DNA from: a phage
Reading direction: 5' to 3' (one strand)
Length of the DNA: 64,000 bases
Assembly (NCBI GenBank): GCA_014437165.1
Contig: GCA_014437165.1_4090.3
The translations under genes and the position numbers were made by a program. The notes under the pieces are model-generated. The model was not told the origin of the DNA and ran no database searches. It saw only the letters and a program-made list of their open reading frames with translations. Shown piece by piece: positions 2,518 to 47,684 of the stretch. The number at the start of each line of letters is the position of its first letter. The stretch's first letter is position 1.

Positions 2518-2772
2518 ATGTTTGCGTTGCGTAATAAAAACACTAAAGAATTATTATGTATTGATACCGTATGGGATTGTGCGGGATCAACTACAGTTCT
2601 TGAAGAAGGAACTGGATATTGCGTGTTTGTTGTACATGATAGGAATGAACTCGAATTATTACTTGCTGAGTTCAATGCTGGTGGTAATCCTAACTGTACT
2701 GAATACCCTGAGATTATCAATCCAGCACCACCAGGCTCTTATGAAATTCTACAACTGTGGGAGTTGAAGTAA
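2518..2772 (+). CDS. hypothetical protein
   Basis: RBS TAGGAGA then ATG 2518; 84 aa. Confidence 0.5.
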   Translation: MFALRNKNTKELLCIDTVWDCAGSTTVLEEGTGYCVFVVHDRNELELLLAEFNAGGNPNCTEYPEIINPAPPGSYEILQLWELK

Positions 2773-3152
2773 TGCGTCAAATGCACAAAGTAACCGAGCT
2801 AAACAAGCGTCTGGTTAAACAATCAATGTTCGAGGATAAAGAGTCTTATTATAACTTTAAACGTGCAGTAGAGGCTGCTATCCACATTCAGAAGCTTAAA
2901 GAACGTGGTTGTATTATTCTGGAAAATGGTTCGGAAGTTGTAACGGATGACTTTAGTGTAGCGTTTGATGTTTCACCTGACGGGACGCTATCAATGCCCC
3001 GCTTAGGAACTGGAAACATGACTGTTTGGGTTGGCTTCACTATGGGGAATGTACCTGGTACTGTGTACGTAGATGATGCAGAATTGAAAGACAGTTTCAA
3101 AAACTTATCTTATCTTGAACCACAATACGCACATGAAATGAATTTATTTTGA
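2772..3152 (+). CDS. hypothetical protein
   Basis: ATG 2772 (MRQMHK..) after GGGAG; overlaps previous stop. Confidence 0.5.
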   Translation: MRQMHKVTELNKRLVKQSMFEDKESYYNFKRAVEAAIHIQKLKERGCIILENGSEVVTDDFSVAFDVSPDGTLSMPRLGTGNMTVWVGFTMGNVPGTVYVDDAELKDSFKNLSYLEPQYAHEMNLF

Positions 3153-3153
3153 G

Positions 3154-3210
3154 TTGACAAACACATTCAGTACTGTATAATGCTTATCAAGGGGATGAAC
3201 TTCTCATCCC
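3154..3210 (+). promoter_or_regulatory. sigma70-like promoter plus 5' leader hairpin
   Basis: TTGACA 3154-3159, 16-nt spacer ending CTG, TATAAT 3176-3181; hairpin GGGATGA-ACTTC-TCATCCC 3192-3210. Confidence 0.6.
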
Positions 3211-3228
3211 TACAATCGAGGAACTACC

Positions 3229-3783
3229 ATGATTACTTTTAAGAAAACTGCTAACCACATCCATGAAATCTACATTAACGGTCACAAAGCTGGCCTTCTT
3301 CGTTTACTCGCCCATCACCCTGATGCTACCGTATCTGATAATGAACCTAAAGATTGGCGTGTCTTTTTCTTTGGAAAGTACAGTGATTTTCAAGTATCAA
3401 ACCTGAAGAACATTCGTTCAGTATGCACGTTAACTGAAATTAAAGAAAAGTTAGCACAAGCATTGAAAACTAATCCAGATGGTGTTCTTCCACCTGATAA
3501 CTTTGTAGAGAAAGGTTATGCCTTAGCTCATTTCAAAGATGGTACTATTCAATCTATCAGTACTGAATATGAATATCATTGGACTGAGTACTTCACTTAT
3601 GGTTCGAGTAATACATTGATGGATTCACGTAGTAAATTGGAAGAAGTACTGACTCGTATGAATGAACGCGAGCGTCAGTTATATGACAAACCAGAAATGT
3701 GGAGTTCAACTTACATTGACCGTATTGACTATGTTATTATGACTCCAATCTTTGACACTGCTTACTATGATTCTTTGAAATAA
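3229..3783 (+). CDS. hypothetical protein
   Basis: 184-aa ORF downstream of promoter/hairpin; RBS GAGGAA. Confidence 0.6.
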   Translation: MITFKKTANHIHEIYINGHKAGLLRLLAHHPDATVSDNEPKDWRVFFFGKYSDFQVSNLKNIRSVCTLTEIKEKLAQALKTNPDGVLPPDNFVEKGYALAHFKDGTIQSISTEYEYHWTEYFTYGSSNTLMDSRSKLEEVLTRMNERERQLYDKPEMWSSTYIDRIDYVIMTPIFDTAYYDSLK

Positions 3784-3794
3784 GGATAACTTAT

Positions 3795-3971
3795 ATGAAA
3801 CTACGTACTCGTAATCGACTGATGGATGCACTGTACCATGAACAGCTTTCACTGAATGAAGTGAAGCGTCAGTTAATGTACACATATCAGTTTCCCGCTC
3901 GCATTGCAAAACAACGTGCTAAAGAATTGCTGAAAGAAGCAATCGAGTACTGGGAATCTGATTCGTACTAA
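3795..3971 (+). CDS. small hypothetical protein (58 aa, below track cutoff)
   Basis: RBS TAAGGA then ATG 3795; open to TAA 3969-3971. Confidence 0.4.
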   Translation: MKLRTRNRLMDALYHEQLSLNEVKRQLMYTYQFPARIAKQRAKELLKEAIEYWESDSY

Positions 3972-4010
3972 TATTACGTGATATGTCACGTTAATTAAGT
4001 GAGGCGATAA

Positions 4011-4262
4011 ATGAAAATATTATTAGTTCTAATACTACTAATAGTTTTACCATTTACTTTAGTATCCCCTGGACTTGCATGGAATGTATTTGTGTACTTA
4101 GTATGTACTATTGTAGTAAATGGTATCTTGTTCTTAGTTCTATTCATAAATGGAATAGGACACGGTGGAGGATGGACCAGTACTGCTGATATTGTACATA
4201 AAACCACTATGTCTTTATTTGTAATGTGGAATTTATTCTGGACTTGGTTTGTGTTCTTCTAA
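4011..4262 (+). CDS. small membrane protein
   Basis: RBS GAGG; strongly hydrophobic 83-aa product. Confidence 0.5.
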   Translation: MKILLVLILLIVLPFTLVSPGLAWNVFVYLVCTIVVNGILFLVLFINGIGHGGGWTSTADIVHKTTMSLFVMWNLFWTWFVFF

Positions 4263-4270
4263 TTAAAAAT

Positions 4271-4642
4271 ATGAATATAGATTTGAAAGGTGCAACACGA
4301 ACTGTTATCCTCATTGGGGAATATGCTATCAAGATTCCAACCTTTAAAAGTTGGAAGCTATTCTTAACAGGGATGATAGCTAACCTCAATGAACGTTCGT
4401 GGATGCAGTACTCCAATCGTAGTGATAGTAGTATCTGTCCTACGTTGTGGTCATCATGTACTGGACTAGTAACTGTACAGAAACGTTGTAAGCCAGTTCA
4501 ACATAGGGGTTTATTTTGGGTGGAGTTGTGTGCTTTAGCATTGAATTCAGAGTTAAGTACTGACTTCTTCTATTCAGATGCGAAGCCAGAAAACTTTGGG
4601 TATCTGGGTGGTAAGTTAGTTAAACTTGATTATGGAGATTAA
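4271..4642 (+). CDS. protein kinase-like N-lobe fragment (mini-kinase or split gene)
   Basis: AIKIP (Lys), SDAKPENFG (HRDLKPEN-like loop), KLVKLDYGD (DFG-like) then stop; internal ATG 4271 chosen over track start 4226. Confidence 0.45.
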   Translation: MNIDLKGATRTVILIGEYAIKIPTFKSWKLFLTGMIANLNERSWMQYSNRSDSSICPTLWSSCTGLVTVQKRCKPVQHRGLFWVELCALALNSELSTDFFYSDAKPENFGYLGGKLVKLDYGD

Positions 4643-4643
4643 T

Positions 4644-4913
4644 ATGTACGCACTGTATAATAAAGAAAAGAAACGATTTGCTAAGGTTGAAATTTCGATT
4701 GATACATTTGATATGTTGGAGTACTGTATTGTAACTGACCTATATGCTAACTTGTATTACGTTCTTGATGACGTATCAGTACTGCAACGATTGCTTGAGA
4801 ATTCCAAAAGTCAATGCCAAGGCATCCATGATGGTTCATCTTATGAAACACCTGAGTGTTCCTACGGCTATCTGGACGGGTATGAGATTGTGAAGTTGGG
4901 GATCATTGAATAA
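4644..4913 (+). CDS. hypothetical protein (possible C-terminal part of a split kinase)
   Basis: ATG 4644 two nt after previous stop. Confidence 0.4.
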   Translation: MYALYNKEKKRFAKVEISIDTFDMLEYCIVTDLYANLYYVLDDVSVLQRLLENSKSQCQGIHDGSSYETPECSYGYLDGYEIVKLGIIE

Positions 4914-4919
4914 AGAAAA

Positions 4920-46604: not shown

Positions 46605-46653
46605 TAACTAAAACAAAGTATAATGTTTTGCATAGGGGGAGATATCCTCCCCC
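46597..46653 (+). promoter_or_regulatory. promoter + leader-hairpin cassette
   Basis: TTGCAT 46597-46602 (overlaps previous stop), 16 nt, TATAAT 46619-46624; hairpin GGGGGAGA-TAT-CCTCCCCC 46635-46653. Confidence 0.65.
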
Positions 46654-46671
46654 ACTAAAAGGAGTAATAAA

Positions 46672-46896
46672 ATGGCTAACTTTGATGAACTAATGCGGGA
46701 AGTAGCTAACCTGGCAGAAGAGAAGAAATCATTCGATTCTATCTATAACACCGCTCATCGTGATTCAGTACTGGCATGTACTCAGGATCAAAAAGATGAA
46801 CTGATCGCCACCTACCATGAAGCGTGGCAGTACTACCGCCAATGGGAGAAAGAAGAAAGTGAGTCTACCATTGACGGCCTCAATAATCTAATCTAA
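46672..46896 (+). CDS. hypothetical protein
   Basis: RBS AAGGAG; 74 aa. Confidence 0.65.
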   Translation: MANFDELMREVANLAEEKKSFDSIYNTAHRDSVLACTQDQKDELIATYHEAWQYYRQWEKEESESTIDGLNNLI

Positions 46897-46907
46897 AAGT
46901 TTTATTT

Positions 46908-46946
46908 CAGTACTATTGACATAGCTTGATAGTACTGATGTAATAA
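46908..46946 (+). promoter_or_regulatory. promoter embedded in a palindromic operator-like site
   Basis: CAGTACTAT 46908-46916 / ATAGTACTG 46929-46937; TTGACA 46916-46921; -10-like TGTAAT. Confidence 0.55.
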
Positions 46947-46972
46947 CTTTACTAACTACAAGGGGAAACATA

Positions 46973-47230
46973 ATGGAACAGTTCACACAATATCGGGTAA
47001 ATCCTCAAGCTATGGCCTACGTAGAAGACCATAAAACGTTACCAGTACTAACACCAATTAAAGGCCATATCTATCGTGCAATGTCATGGAATACGGCCCA
47101 GGATGGATATACTACCGCTGGCGTGGGTATGTATTGCGGGAATGGTGAATGGTTTGATCCAAATAATCCGGTAGCCATTGACAGTACTGAAAAAATGAAA
47201 TGGGCCGACTACATCGAAGATATTTCATAA
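46973..47230 (+). CDS. hypothetical protein
   Basis: RBS AAGGGGAAA; 85 aa. Confidence 0.6.
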   Translation: MEQFTQYRVNPQAMAYVEDHKTLPVLTPIKGHIYRAMSWNTAQDGYTTAGVGMYCGNGEWFDPNNPVAIDSTEKMKWADYIEDIS

Positions 47231-47236
47231 AACTAT

Positions 47237-47297
47237 TTGACAGTACTAACCAGTAATGTATAATGTTTTACATAGAGCGGGGGAATAGTTCTCCCGC
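47237..47297 (+). promoter_or_regulatory. promoter + leader-hairpin cassette
   Basis: TTGACA 47237-47242, 16 nt, TATAAT 47259-47264; hairpin GCGGGGGAA-TAG-TTCTCCCGC 47277-47297. Confidence 0.7.
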
Positions 47298-47319
47298 CAA
47301 TAGTTTGGAGTAAAACATT

Positions 47320-47520
47320 ATGTCTATCGCTATCGCCCTGGTTGAAGTACTGAAAGAAGCTAAAGCCAACCAGATCGACGTAAAGATCCAGGAACTACAA
47401 AACGGCTTAATCGGCTGTACTTGTACCGCTGGTGGAGCGGCAGACTATCGAGAACACGAATCACTCGAATCACTGGTTCGGTATCTTACCATGATCGTTG
47501 ATGATTGGAGAATCATCTAA
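47320..47520 (+). CDS. hypothetical protein
   Basis: RBS TGGAG; 66 aa. Confidence 0.6.
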   Translation: MSIAIALVEVLKEAKANQIDVKIQELQNGLIGCTCTAGGAADYREHESLESLVRYLTMIVDDWRII

Positions 47521-47538
47521 CAAAAAAGAATAAAAAAA

Positions 47539-47563
47539 GGAGTTGACTTCGGTCCGCTCCTTT
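47539..47563 (+). terminator. terminator-like hairpin / degenerate PeSL-like cassette
   Basis: GGAGTTGAC-TTCG-GTCCGCTCC (one mismatch) + TTT. Confidence 0.5.
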
Positions 47564-47684
47564 AGTACTATATACGCATAGACAAAAACTAGCCCACAGG
47601 GTGCATAGGTGTATCTAAAATATATAGTTAATAACGGTGAGTAACTATCTGCTGGTGGAACTAAAACTATTAATAAAAAAAGTA

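Follow-up and report, generated by a model that had tools for sequence, protein, structure and literature searches.

Chi octamers are clustered in the direct terminal repeat counterpart of an Asteriusvirus jumbo coliphage

Results

The window and its terminal repeat

The stretch of DNA analysed here (the window, 64,000 nt) derives from a virulent Asteriusvirus jumbo coliphage of the 121Q/PBECO4/G17 group with a genome of ~350 kb. It is 88–99% identical to E. coli phages of this genus, phage Sharanji being 99.3% identical to window 1–24 kb. From these relatives we infer that the host is E. coli, with a RecBCD that would recognise GCTGGTGG. Positions 1–21525 of vB_Ec-M-J (OQ718158), annotated as Direct Terminal Repeats, were found by BLAST to align to the window from 27924 to ~49019. 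One copy of the repeat is present, with unique DNA of the right genome end up to 27923 and unique DNA of the left end from ~49020. This single flanked copy would represent a collapsed or concatemer-junction arrangement, its assignment as a direct terminal repeat (DTR) being based on homology to vB_Ec-M-J, fEgEco12 and Sharanji. The DTR is 20,993 bp in fEgEco12 (PhageTerm and restriction digests) and 20,668 bp in Sharanji (PhageTerm). The restriction cuts of fEgEco12 DNA match the in silico prediction, thus this DNA is not heavily modified.

The DTR counterpart is the early-gene region. It contains ~46 small and mostly monocistronic genes, all on the plus strand, and 15 perfect sigma-70 consensus promoters on the same strand. 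The GC content in vB_Ec-M-J is 0.386 in the DTR versus 0.323 in the rest of the genome. No RecBCD inhibitor was recognisable among 30 DTR proteins in PHROGs searches, most of these proteins being without known function. Sharanji is annotated with recombinase A, a RecD-like helicase and exonucleases.

Number and location of Chi octamers

An exact search of both strands of the whole window found 16 copies of GCTGGTGG, 12 plus and 4 minus (Table 1), where ~0.6 are expected. Dinucleotide shuffles averaged 0.60 copies and never exceeded 3, and Markov models of order 0–4 gave 0.2–0.7 for the plus-strand word across the whole window. The Chi enrichment claimed in the original prediction is therefore upheld by exact counting, shuffles and Markov models. 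All 14 coordinates given there were exact; its scan, which it called incomplete, had missed the plus-strand sites at 15005 and 43952.

Twelve of the sites (10 plus, 2 minus) fall in 27924–49019, the DTR counterpart, at a density of 0.57 per kb. That the cluster coincides with the DTR of a linear jumbo phage had not been recognised originally, and it is this position which makes the sites mechanistically meaningful. The 10 plus copies in 27913–49437 compare with 0.1–0.5 expected from the region's own composition (Markov order 0–4; Poisson p = 1.4e-10 versus the order-4 expectation). At order 5 the expectation for the plus-strand word rises to 1.9, still giving p = 3.5e-5. Both the over-representation and the strand bias hold in this composition-matched exact count of the two strands. 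Only the full octamer is enriched, not its one-mismatch neighbours: the 24 one-mismatch variants have 0–1 copies each in the repeat region, where every GCTGGTG and CTGGTGG 7-mer falls within a Chi. Among all 8-mers, Chi ranks 14 in the window's DTR, 22 in vB_Ec-M-J, 26 in Muenster and 4 in fENko-Kae01, and the 8-mers outranking it in the window's DTR belong nearly all to promoter or CAGTACTG motif families.

The original description of the copies as mostly intergenic and on the plus strand was correct for the strand (10:2 in the cluster) and half right for the location: non-coding copies make up 8 of 16 over the window as a whole and 8 of 12 within the cluster. The DTR itself is ~59% coding and ~41% non-coding, yet two thirds of its Chi are non-coding.

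The four sites outside the DTR, all coding, are background and not members of the cluster. Those at 17280 and 17538 had been attributed to a glycine-rich gene, and they do read GCT GGT GG on its sense strand. Three of the four (2677, 17280 and 17538) are Ala-Gly-Gly codons; codon usage leaves 15005 unexplained. Chi outside the DTR of EC22.5-2 are also mostly in long ORFs, on the sense strand and in the frame GCT GGT GG.

Table 1. Position and context of the Chi octamers and of the DTR counterpart, with the state of individual octamers in four relatives.
Feature	Position	Strand	Context	Octamer in four relatives
Background Chi	2677..2684	+	sense strand of ORF 2518-2772, codons GCT GGT GG (Ala-Gly-Gly)	
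Background Chi	15005..15012	+	antisense to minus-strand ORF 14825-15973	
Two background Chi	17280-17287, 17538-17545	-	sense strand of glycine-rich minus-strand ORF 17222-17959, GCT/GGT codons	
DTR counterpart, ~21 kb	27924..49019	+	BLAST to vB_Ec-M-J OQ718158	
Inverted Chi pair CCACCAGC-TTGT-GCTGGTGG	28500..28519	- (28500), + (28512)	non-coding; 576-588 bp from left genome end	
Chi	29359..29366	+	non-coding; terminal 1.8 kb without genes, before first DTR gene	GATTGGAA or GGTGGGAG
Chi	35248..35255	-	intergenic; immediately downstream of terminator 35202-35223	
Chi	35310..35317	+	intergenic, between gene ending 35180 and gene starting 35466	unchanged in 4/4; flanks vary
Chi	39029..39036	+	intergenic; loop and 3' arm of terminator-like hairpin AGCCCAC...GTGGGCT	unchanged in 4/4
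Chi	40491..40498	+	within small ORF 40398-40586, frame GCT GGT GG	unchanged in 4/4, synonymous third positions included
Chi	41409..41416	+	intergenic (41309-41624), upstream of promoter 41563-41590	unchanged in 4; two have 10-nt insertions 1-2 nt 3' of octamer
Chi	43952..43959	+	within small ORF 43914-44156, frame CTG GTG	unchanged in 4, including A4 with just 79% local identity
Chi	45851..45858	+	within ORF 45794-46066, frame GCT GGT GG	
Chi	47428..47435	+	within ORF 47320-47520, frame GCT GGT GG; 1.58 kb from right DTR end	
Chi	47651..47658	+	intergenic, upstream of promoter 47685-47713	unchanged in 4; TH47 has 12-nt insertion one base past octamer

Orientation of the cluster

Ten of the 12 DTR sites read GCTGGTGG on the strand ending 3' at the right terminus and two face the left terminus, the termini being placed by homology to records with determined ends. 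RecBCD that comes in from the right approaches a top-strand GCTGGTGG from its 3' side, the direction in which Chi is active. Correctly oriented sites lie 1.4, 1.6, 3.2, 5.1, 7.6, 8.5, 10.0, 13.7, 19.7 and 20.5 kb from the right end, the first of them for an entering RecBCD being 47651, 1.36 kb in. From the left end there are two, at 0.6 and 7.3 kb. When three lineages are pooled the ratio is 29 plus to 5 minus (p = 4e-5), and 17:4 for non-coding sites alone (p = 0.007). Given that all DTR genes are on the plus strand, orientation is confounded with transcription, and also with replication if forks move rightwards.

The minus copy at 28500, the first Chi for RecBCD entering from the left end, forms with its plus partner a perfect 8-bp palindrome with a 4-nt spacer. 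This inverted pair is kept, with a varying 4-nt spacer, in vB_Ec-M-J (588/600), EC22.5-2, TH47 and, more distantly, the Klebsiella phage fENko-Kae01 (484/496). Phage A4 has lost the pair and Muenster does not have it. The second and final site facing the left end, 35248, was lost in A4 by one substitution (CCACTAGC). The plus-strand site at 29359 was gained by this phage alone.

Conservation and recurrence in relatives

The eight shared plus octamers show 0 differences in 240 aligned positions across four relatives, against 247 in 3586 (6.9%) for their ±60-nt flanks (Fisher 6e-8 for octamers versus flanks, calculated on related, non-independent genomes). Intact plus octamers have indels within 1–2 nt. 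The two left-facing sites change at the flank rate (5/64) and all are lost in A4.

A whole-genome count was made in the related EC22.5-2 (352 kb), and the concentration holds: the DTR makes up 6% of this genome and contains 11 of its 28 Chi (p = 3e-7), giving 0.52 Chi/kb versus 0.05/kb elsewhere. The same concentration in the DTR is found in TH47, A4, fENko-Kae01 and Muenster. The last two are Klebsiella phages, each with ~30% ANI to Asteriusvirus. fENko-Kae01 has 12 plus and 2 minus Chi in its PhageTerm DTR and 1 plus and 1 minus in the following 30 kb, while Muenster has 7 plus and 1 minus in the DTR and 0 in the following 30 kb. According to the CDS tables, 7/12 plus sites in fENko-Kae01 and 4/7 in Muenster are non-coding. 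The DTR Chi of these Klebsiella jumbo phages are mostly or wholly at positions unlike those in Asteriusvirus.

Discussion

A role for Chi at the genome ends

The exact specificity for the octamer, its non-coding location, its conservation beyond that of the flanks, its recurrence in three genera and its uniform orientation support selection on the Chi octamer itself, with a function that appears to be tied to the genome ends.

On balance the cluster is probably a cis-acting Chi array in the DTR, which would limit RecBCD degradation to the redundant repeat and load RecA for repeat-to-repeat recombination. The virion DNA would be linear with a copy of the ~21-kb DTR at each end, and selection would have loaded this repeat with the Chi of the host. 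Host RecBCD would bind the exposed right end and travel leftwards through the right DTR copy, where a per-site recognition probability of 0.2–0.4 would lead to recognition of at least one site in 89–99% of passages. Recognition would turn RecBCD from a destructive nuclease into a loader of RecA, with the loss of DNA confined to sequence duplicated at the opposite end. The RecA-coated 3' tail would then find its homologue in the left DTR copy, either of its own genome or of a sister, and strand invasion there would circularise or concatemerise the genome or prime replication. The right end is predicted to be the one exposed to RecBCD.

In free linear DNA both ends would be exposed alike, yet the left one has just two correctly oriented sites, an observation that goes against this mechanism.

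Alternative explanations

The sites could be functional Chi with a purely defensive benefit, although this seems rather unlikely. Chi would then curb degradation of the ends by RecBCD, and hence the supply of fragments for CRISPR spacer acquisition, and might also titrate or inactivate RecBCD. Inactivation without a protein inhibitor may dodge abortive-infection systems which sense RecBCD inhibition. In vivo, linear DNA is protected by Chi in a way that depends on RecA, RecBCD is inactivated once it has acted on a Chi site, and the hotspots of RecBCD-dependent spacer acquisition are delimited by Chi. A defensive benefit draws on the same enrichment, specificity, DTR location, conservation and recurrence as the recombination mechanism. 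The failure to recognise a RecBCD inhibitor among the 30 DTR proteins also fits, although an inhibitor may still exist among the many proteins without known function, and the recombinase annotated in Sharanji suggests that host-driven recombination may be dispensable. However, the restriction of the array to the redundant repeat, together with the precedent of P1, points to a role for homology between the ends, and the reported in vivo protection by Chi itself requires RecA. The counter-defence against RecBCD suggested in the original prediction is partly supported, in that the octamer appears to be selected and to function at the genome ends. The data fit pure protection as well as Chi-stimulated RecA/RecBCD recombination between the two repeat copies, the latter being preferred for P1 and LLS.

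It is improbable that the octamer instead serves regulation or packaging in the early/terminal region, as the target of a DNA-binding protein from the phage or the host, and matches Chi incidentally. Such a motif would be in keeping with the other over-represented words of the DTR, which are -10/-35 hexamers, CAGTACTG (31 copies) and GTTCTCCC (11 copies), with the position of the eight intergenic sites between terminators and promoters, and with the conserved palindromic pair at the left end, whose 4-nt spacer fits a putative dimeric binding site. However, the word is the exact host Chi in three lineages sharing little DTR sequence, and 4 of the 10 plus sites are within ORFs. Distance and register to promoters, terminators and start codons are not fixed, the flanks are unrelated, no consensus is seen beyond the 8 bases and near-variants are absent in the repeat region.

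An origin as a by-product of composition or codon usage, in a GC-richer early region with small genes rich in GCT, GGT, CTG and GTG and without selection for Chi, is very improbable and largely refuted: the higher GC content of the DTR in vB_Ec-M-J, the GCT GGT GG frame of three of the four coding DTR sites (as in most background sites) and the order-5 expectation of 1.9 speak for it, but most of the cluster is non-coding, the DTR's own composition predicts at most 0.5 copies up to order 4 and even 1.9 leaves the count highly significant, one-mismatch neighbours are absent, the octamers are far more conserved than their flanks, synonymous positions included, and the pattern recurs in two other genera.

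Comparison with known systems

The octamer and its orientation logic are the same as in the E. coli chromosome, where Chi is active toward RecBCD arriving from one side. The Chi excess of E. coli is largely due to codon usage, Chi being 13-fold commoner in ORFs than outside them. The phage Chi outside the DTR resemble this, being also mostly in ORFs and on the sense strand, whereas the DTR Chi are mostly non-coding.

T5 also has a long exact DTR at both ends, small early genes and strong host-type promoters, and its repeat enters the cell ahead of the rest of the genome (first-step-transfer DNA with the pre-early genes). The T5 repeat differs in being 10.2 kb long and in having no array: it has 2 Chi, both plus and both in ORFs, versus 0.16 expected. 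Thus a Chi array is no general requirement of a long-DTR genome design. The nicks and the injection stop signal are features of T5.

LLS is a lambdoid phage of the 'no Rec module, high Chi' kind, for which positive selection of Chi was inferred by its authors (Zheng, Casjens, Davidson, Amundsen & Smith, Genome Res 2025, PMC12315714). Its Chi are likewise clustered toward the right end, ~7:1 in the orientation that serves RecBCD arriving from that side (20 versus 3; here 10 versus 2). However, LLS has cohesive ends and lacks a long DTR, a recombinase and a RecBCD inhibitor, and RecBCD was shown to help its growth. Its Chi are spread genome-wide with half in the rightmost 22%, whereas the excess in the present phage is limited to the DTR. 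Among lambdoid phages a high Chi count goes with the lack of a Rec module; judged from the Sharanji annotation, this phage has one, and it therefore breaks the rule and host recombination may be unneeded.

In P1 (and P7 and D6) 50 Chi are concentrated at the packaged DNA ends, in the terminal redundancy, and recombination between the terminal repeats of P1 depends on RecBCD, RecA and the recognition of Chi (Subramaniam & Smith, bioRxiv 10.1101/2021.07.08.451572; Zheng et al. 2025, PMC12315714). P1 shares with the present phage a Chi count well in excess of expectation, the concentration of the sites in the terminal repeats of the linear virion DNA, and a density that is no lower outside genes than within them. 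Chi-activated recombination by RecBCD and RecA, joining the two repeats once the DNA has been injected, is the role proposed for both. P1 differs in being temperate and ~95 kb, with headful packaging and variable ends, whereas the present phage is virulent and ~350 kb with a fixed 21-kb DTR. Chi occurs on both strands in P1 (31/50 top) and in nearly one orientation here, and it is the single top octamer in both P1 and LLS, against rank 14 in the window's DTR. The growth of P1 is known to need RecBCD, and a close relative of the jumbo phage has a recombinase of its own. If the recombination mechanism is true, the logic proposed for P1 and the lambdoid LLS appears here in virulent jumbo phages.

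Chi sites in the window

An exact search found 16 copies of Chi, the RecBCD recombination octamer of E. coli (GCTGGTGG, or CCACCAGC when read on the other strand), in the 64-kb window, 12 on the plus strand and four on the minus strand. Dinucleotide-preserving shuffles of the window averaged 0.60 copies and never exceeded 3, and Markov models of the whole window (order 0–4) gave an expectation of 0.2–0.7 for the plus-strand word. The window is AT-rich, with a GC content of 31–39%. The Chi enrichment claimed in the original prediction is therefore confirmed; all 14 of the coordinates listed there were right, while the sites at 15005 and 43952 had been missed. 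Within the cluster region, the 24 single-mismatch variants of Chi were present in 0–1 copies each, and all ten plus-strand copies of GCTGGTG and all ten of CTGGTGG fell within Chi. Thus the enrichment is a property of the complete octamer.

Twelve of the 16 sites (ten plus, two minus), spanning 28500–47658, lie inside the counterpart of the direct terminal repeat (DTR) of related phages, at a density of 0.57 per kb versus 0.09 per kb in the other 43 kb of the window. The expectation on the repeat's own composition (orders 0–4) was 0.1–0.5 for the plus word and 0.04–0.08 for the minus word. Ranked by Poisson p-value, Chi was 14th among all 8-mers of the repeat, the words above it being nearly all −10/−35 promoter elements, the palindrome CAGTACTG and leader hairpin families. 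The genome of the relative EC22.5-2, assembled whole at 351,992 bp with one repeat copy, contains 28 Chi, 11 of which (nine plus, two minus) are in the repeat, which makes up a 6% share of the total length (binomial p = 3e-7). Outside the repeat, 331 kb contain 17 Chi, and most of these read GCT GGT GG in frame on the sense strand of long ORFs. Three window sites (2677, 17280 and 17538) belong to this type and are codon-driven background; the last two had already been attributed to the codons of a glycine-rich gene, correctly, as they are sense-strand GCT GGT GG.

Coordinates of Chi sites and other elements (window positions unless another record is named)
Feature	Position	Strand	Source
Chi, plus strand	2677, 15005, 28512, 29359, 35310, 39029, 40491, 41409, 43952, 45851, 47428, 47651	+	exact search
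Chi, minus strand	17280, 17538, 28500, 35248	-	exact search
Non-coding Chi of the repeat	28500, 28512, 29359, 35248, 35310, 39029, 41409, 47651	28500 and 35248 -, rest +	ORF calls
Chi sites lost in phage A4	ON286972 4894–4930 (both left-end pair members), 11544–11560 (35248 equivalent)		alignment
Leader stem-loop, GTTCTCCC arm	29459, 32439, 33333, 35754, 37226, 44966, 45269, 45763, 46313, 47288, 48159		
Hairpin AAAGGGATTGACTCCGGTCAGTCCCTTT	37633–37660, 41321–41348, 44784–44811		
Repeated element of ~105–160 bp	17101–17226, 19166–19317, 20372–20529		
Left-end inverted repeat, GGCAGAGGAAGTCTGCC	27928–27944 (region 27924–27944)		
Right-boundary motif	49010–49025		
Right-boundary motif in other records	vB_Ec-M-J 21520–21530; fENko-Kae01 19730–19742; Muenster 20025–20036		

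The terminal repeat and its flanks

Megablast placed the window with the Asteriusvirus jumbo coliphages (121Q, PBECO4, G17, Sharanji, vB_Ec-M-J, fEgEco12), at 88–99% identity varying by segment; Sharanji is 99.3% identical over window 1–24 kb. Several database records begin at the equivalent of window ~27.9 kb, and the first 21,525 bp of vB_Ec-M-J (OQ718158) are annotated as a direct terminal repeat, which was mapped by BLAST to window 27924–~49019. The DTR is 20,993 bp in fEgEco12 (PhageTerm, confirmed by restriction digests; PMC13070987) and 20,668 bp in Sharanji (PhageTerm; PMC11895373). The window holds one repeat copy, its left flank homologous to the right-end unique region and its right flank to the left-end unique region. 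These homologies point to an arrangement that is either collapsed or a concatemer junction.

The repeat is an early region. It carries ~46 small plus-strand genes, most of them separated by short intergenic gaps, and numerous hairpin terminators. Its fifteen perfect (12/12) sigma-70 promoters on the plus strand, TTGACA-N16/17-TATAAT, lie in 28288–47264, and a second promoter class with the −35 variant AGTACTTGCA has 16 copies, all within the repeat. The genes of the repeat are mostly monocistronic; just outside it, operon-like overlaps are seen. When 30 repeat proteins were searched against PHROGs nearly all were of unknown function, the exceptions being a DksA-like protein, an acetyltransferase and a weak ligase-like match. 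No RecBCD inhibitor was recognised among these 30 proteins, which does not imply absence given that nearly all the matches are functionally unannotated.

Other elements were observed in the repeat. Eleven early genes have a common leader stem-loop, beginning a few bases past the −10 box and just upstream of the ribosome-binding site, in the layout TATAAT-gtTTTACATAGAG-GGGGAGAA-atg-GTTCTCCC; GTTCTCCC has 11 copies in the repeat and none in the rest of the window. It probably acts as a 5'-UTR element in early-transcript stability or regulation. The palindrome CAGTACTG, with a ScaI site inside, has 31 copies in 27924–49019 and 48 in the whole window, and is among the most over-represented 8-mers of the repeat. 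It is often found within promoter spacers, immediately upstream of the −10 box (TTGACA-N8-CAGTACTG-TATAAT), pairs of it build long hairpins, e.g. at 28445–28478, and it is conserved near the left end of Klebsiella phage fENko-Kae01 as well. The 28-nt perfect hairpin AAAGGGATTGACTCCGGTCAGTCCCTTT has three copies, one a variant; its 5' arm holds a −35-like TTGACT and TATTAT follows the hairpin, so that it could be an overlapping terminator and promoter in one element.

The left genome end opens with a hairpin-forming inverted repeat. The right repeat boundary has a short motif, …CCT|TAGC…, conserved in three genera, with TTGGACTATG or similar ~40 nt upstream. Both are candidate terminase cutting signals. 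The stretch at 24100–27900, in the right-end unique region just before the repeat, has almost no ORF of at least 80 aa; a search of it found no tRNA genes, and a run of 60–70-aa genes is annotated at its equivalent in phage A4. Further left, a repeated element lies between paralogous minus-strand genes in a block at 12.4–24.1 kb, annotated in relatives as RCC1-like or 'DNA condensation'; in BLAST it showed up as multiple hits, spread over many positions of related phages.

Evidence for selection on the octamer

By our own ORF calls, eight of the 12 Chi sites in the repeat are non-coding, though ~59% of the repeat is coding. Neither common flanks nor a fixed spacing to promoters or terminators was found among the sites; 41409 and 47651 have one upstream hairpin word in common and the flanks are otherwise unrelated. 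This rules out that the Chi copies are parts of one repeated intergenic element, and the octamer itself is thus the repeated unit.

The window was compared with vB_Ec-M-J, EC22.5-2, TH47 and the more distant A4. Within the eight shared plus-strand octamers, none of 240 aligned positions was changed (0/128 non-coding; 0/112 coding, synonymous third positions included) versus 247 of 3586 (6.9%) in the ±60-nt flanks, with a Fisher p of 6e-8 that overstates independence because the genomes are related. Insertions of 10–12 nt lie 1–2 nt from intact octamers in several genomes. The two minus sites and the plus member of a pair at the left end change at the flank rate. A4 has kept all eight core plus-strand Chi and lost all three non-core sites, with one C-to-T substitution abolishing the equivalent of 35248. 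Site 29359 was gained in the window's phage alone. These comparisons argue for selection on the octamer itself. An explanation by composition or codon usage is rejected by the Markov models, the one-mismatch counts, the non-coding location and the octamer conservation.

Recurrence in other genera

The lineages of fENko-Kae01 and Muenster have only ~30% ANI to Asteriusvirus. Klebsiella phage fENko-Kae01 has 12 plus and two minus Chi in its PhageTerm-defined 19,736-bp repeat, where Chi is the fourth most over-represented 8-mer, and one of each in the next 30 kb. In Klebsiella phage Muenster (Alcyoneusvirus), the 20,030-bp repeat contains seven plus and one minus, and the 30 kb that follow are free of Chi. 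By the deposited annotation, more than half of the plus-strand Chi are intergenic in fENko-Kae01, and likewise in Muenster. Over the three lineages there are 29 plus versus five minus sites (p = 4e-5), or 17 versus four when only non-coding sites are counted (p = 0.007). All the repeat genes point the same way as the plus-strand Chi, hence the strand bias may be linked to transcription or replication; such a link would not explain the confinement of Chi to the repeat.

One element is positionally conserved between genera, an inverted pair, CCACCAGC-N4-GCTGGTGGAT with a variable spacer, ~0.5–0.6 kb from the left end in the window, vB_Ec-M-J, EC22.5-2, TH47 and fENko-Kae01. Scanning IMG/VR for CCACCAGC-N4-GCTGGTGG gave 46 matches, judged near the chance number and mostly GC-rich or hairpin terminators in unrelated contigs, 121Q being the sole related phage; the pair was dropped as a tracer of the element across IMG/VR. 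It was observed that in these unrelated viral contigs the pair is often the stem of an intrinsic terminator flanked by A-runs and T-runs, which holds Chi in both orientations.

Proposed mechanism

The virion genome would have a repeat copy at each end, and RecBCD that loads onto the right terminus would encounter ten plus sites, at 1.36, 1.58, 3.2, 5.1, 7.6, 8.5, 10.0, 13.7, 19.7 and 20.5 kb. If RecBCD is assumed to recognise a single Chi with a probability of 0.2–0.4, at least one site would be recognised in 89–99% of passages; in 49–78%, recognition would already occur within the first three sites. Past Chi, RecBCD would spare the 3'-ended strand and load RecA. The degraded sequence would survive in the left repeat copy, and a RecA filament homologous to that copy could give circularisation, concatemer formation or recombination-primed replication. 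For RecBCD coming from the left end, just two sites would be in the correct orientation, 0.58 and 7.3 kb in. The right end is predicted to be the RecBCD-exposed one, e.g. by entering first. Restriction cutting of fEgEco12 DNA matches the in silico prediction (PMC13070987), which speaks against heavy modification of the bases, by which Chi could be masked.

The annotation of Sharanji, a close relative, includes a recombinase A of its own, a RecD-like helicase and exonucleases (PMC11895373), which sets it apart from the lambdoid class with no Rec module and high Chi. What Chi brings may be protection in the early phase, ahead of phage protein synthesis, and not a stand-in for a missing recombinase. 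The possible RecBCD counter-defence of the original prediction is supported in part: selection for Chi has evidence at the sequence level, and we infer that RecBCD acts on these ends and recognises Chi there, with protection and/or recombination as the outcome.

A wider proposal, offered tentatively as a possibility, is that Rak2-like jumbo phages in general use unidirectional Chi arrays in their DTRs as a cis-acting device that has so far gone unnoticed. The arrays would label the RecBCD-exposed end, probably the first to enter, and make RecBCD a RecA loader for DTR–DTR strand invasion, by which the 350-kb genome would be circularised or its first replication primed; the array would also replace a protein inhibitor of RecBCD and so evade host guard systems triggered by RecBCD inhibition. 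A purely defensive use, with fewer RecBCD fragments for CRISPR adaptation and no protein inhibitor for guard systems to sense, seems to us unlikely. That the octamer is a regulatory motif and its identity with Chi incidental would suit the intergenic location and the palindromic left-end pair, but is improbable given that the word is exactly the host Chi in three lineages, that some sites are inside ORFs and that there is no register with promoters.

Recruitment of host Chi into the terminal repeat of a giant lytic coliphage is, on sequence evidence, well supported, and the case is clean, conserved and directly testable. It predicts which genome end faces RecBCD, that recBCD, recA and Chi-blind recC alleles, or mutation of ~ten defined octamers, would affect infection, and that resection would halt at mapped positions. 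The array also offers a handle on how linear DNA of 350 kb withstands a RecBCD-proficient cell and begins to replicate there.

Comparison with known systems

No mention of Chi was found in the Asteriusvirus literature on fEgEco12 (PMC13070987) and Sharanji (PMC11895373), the sole mention of RecBCD for the latter being the RecD-like gene annotation. A full-text search for Chi with jumbo phages or direct terminal repeats, incomplete in coverage and no proof of novelty, gave nothing relevant. Phage T5 also has a long repeat with early genes, but only two Chi in 10.2 kb, so the array is not shared by long-DTR phages at large.

P1, together with its relatives, and the lambdoid LLS provide the nearest precedents. 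P1 has 50 Chi, denser towards the packaged ends, and recombination between its terminal repeats requires RecBCD, RecA and Chi recognition (bioRxiv 10.1101/2021.07.08.451572; PMC12315714). Until now, the case for terminal Chi accumulation was made in temperate phages, P1-like and lambdoid, without their own recombination functions. The same signature is here confined to a 20-kb terminal repeat and conserved over three genus-level virulent jumbo lineages; if functional, the strategy would extend to very large lytic phages under development for therapy. The arguments for direct selection made for P1 and LLS, namely terminal concentration, non-coding density and frame usage, apply to the window's phage too. 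Unlike them, the jumbo phage is virulent, with a fixed 20-kb DTR, near-unidirectional sites, a Chi excess restricted to the repeat and a phage-encoded recombinase, as annotated in the relative Sharanji.
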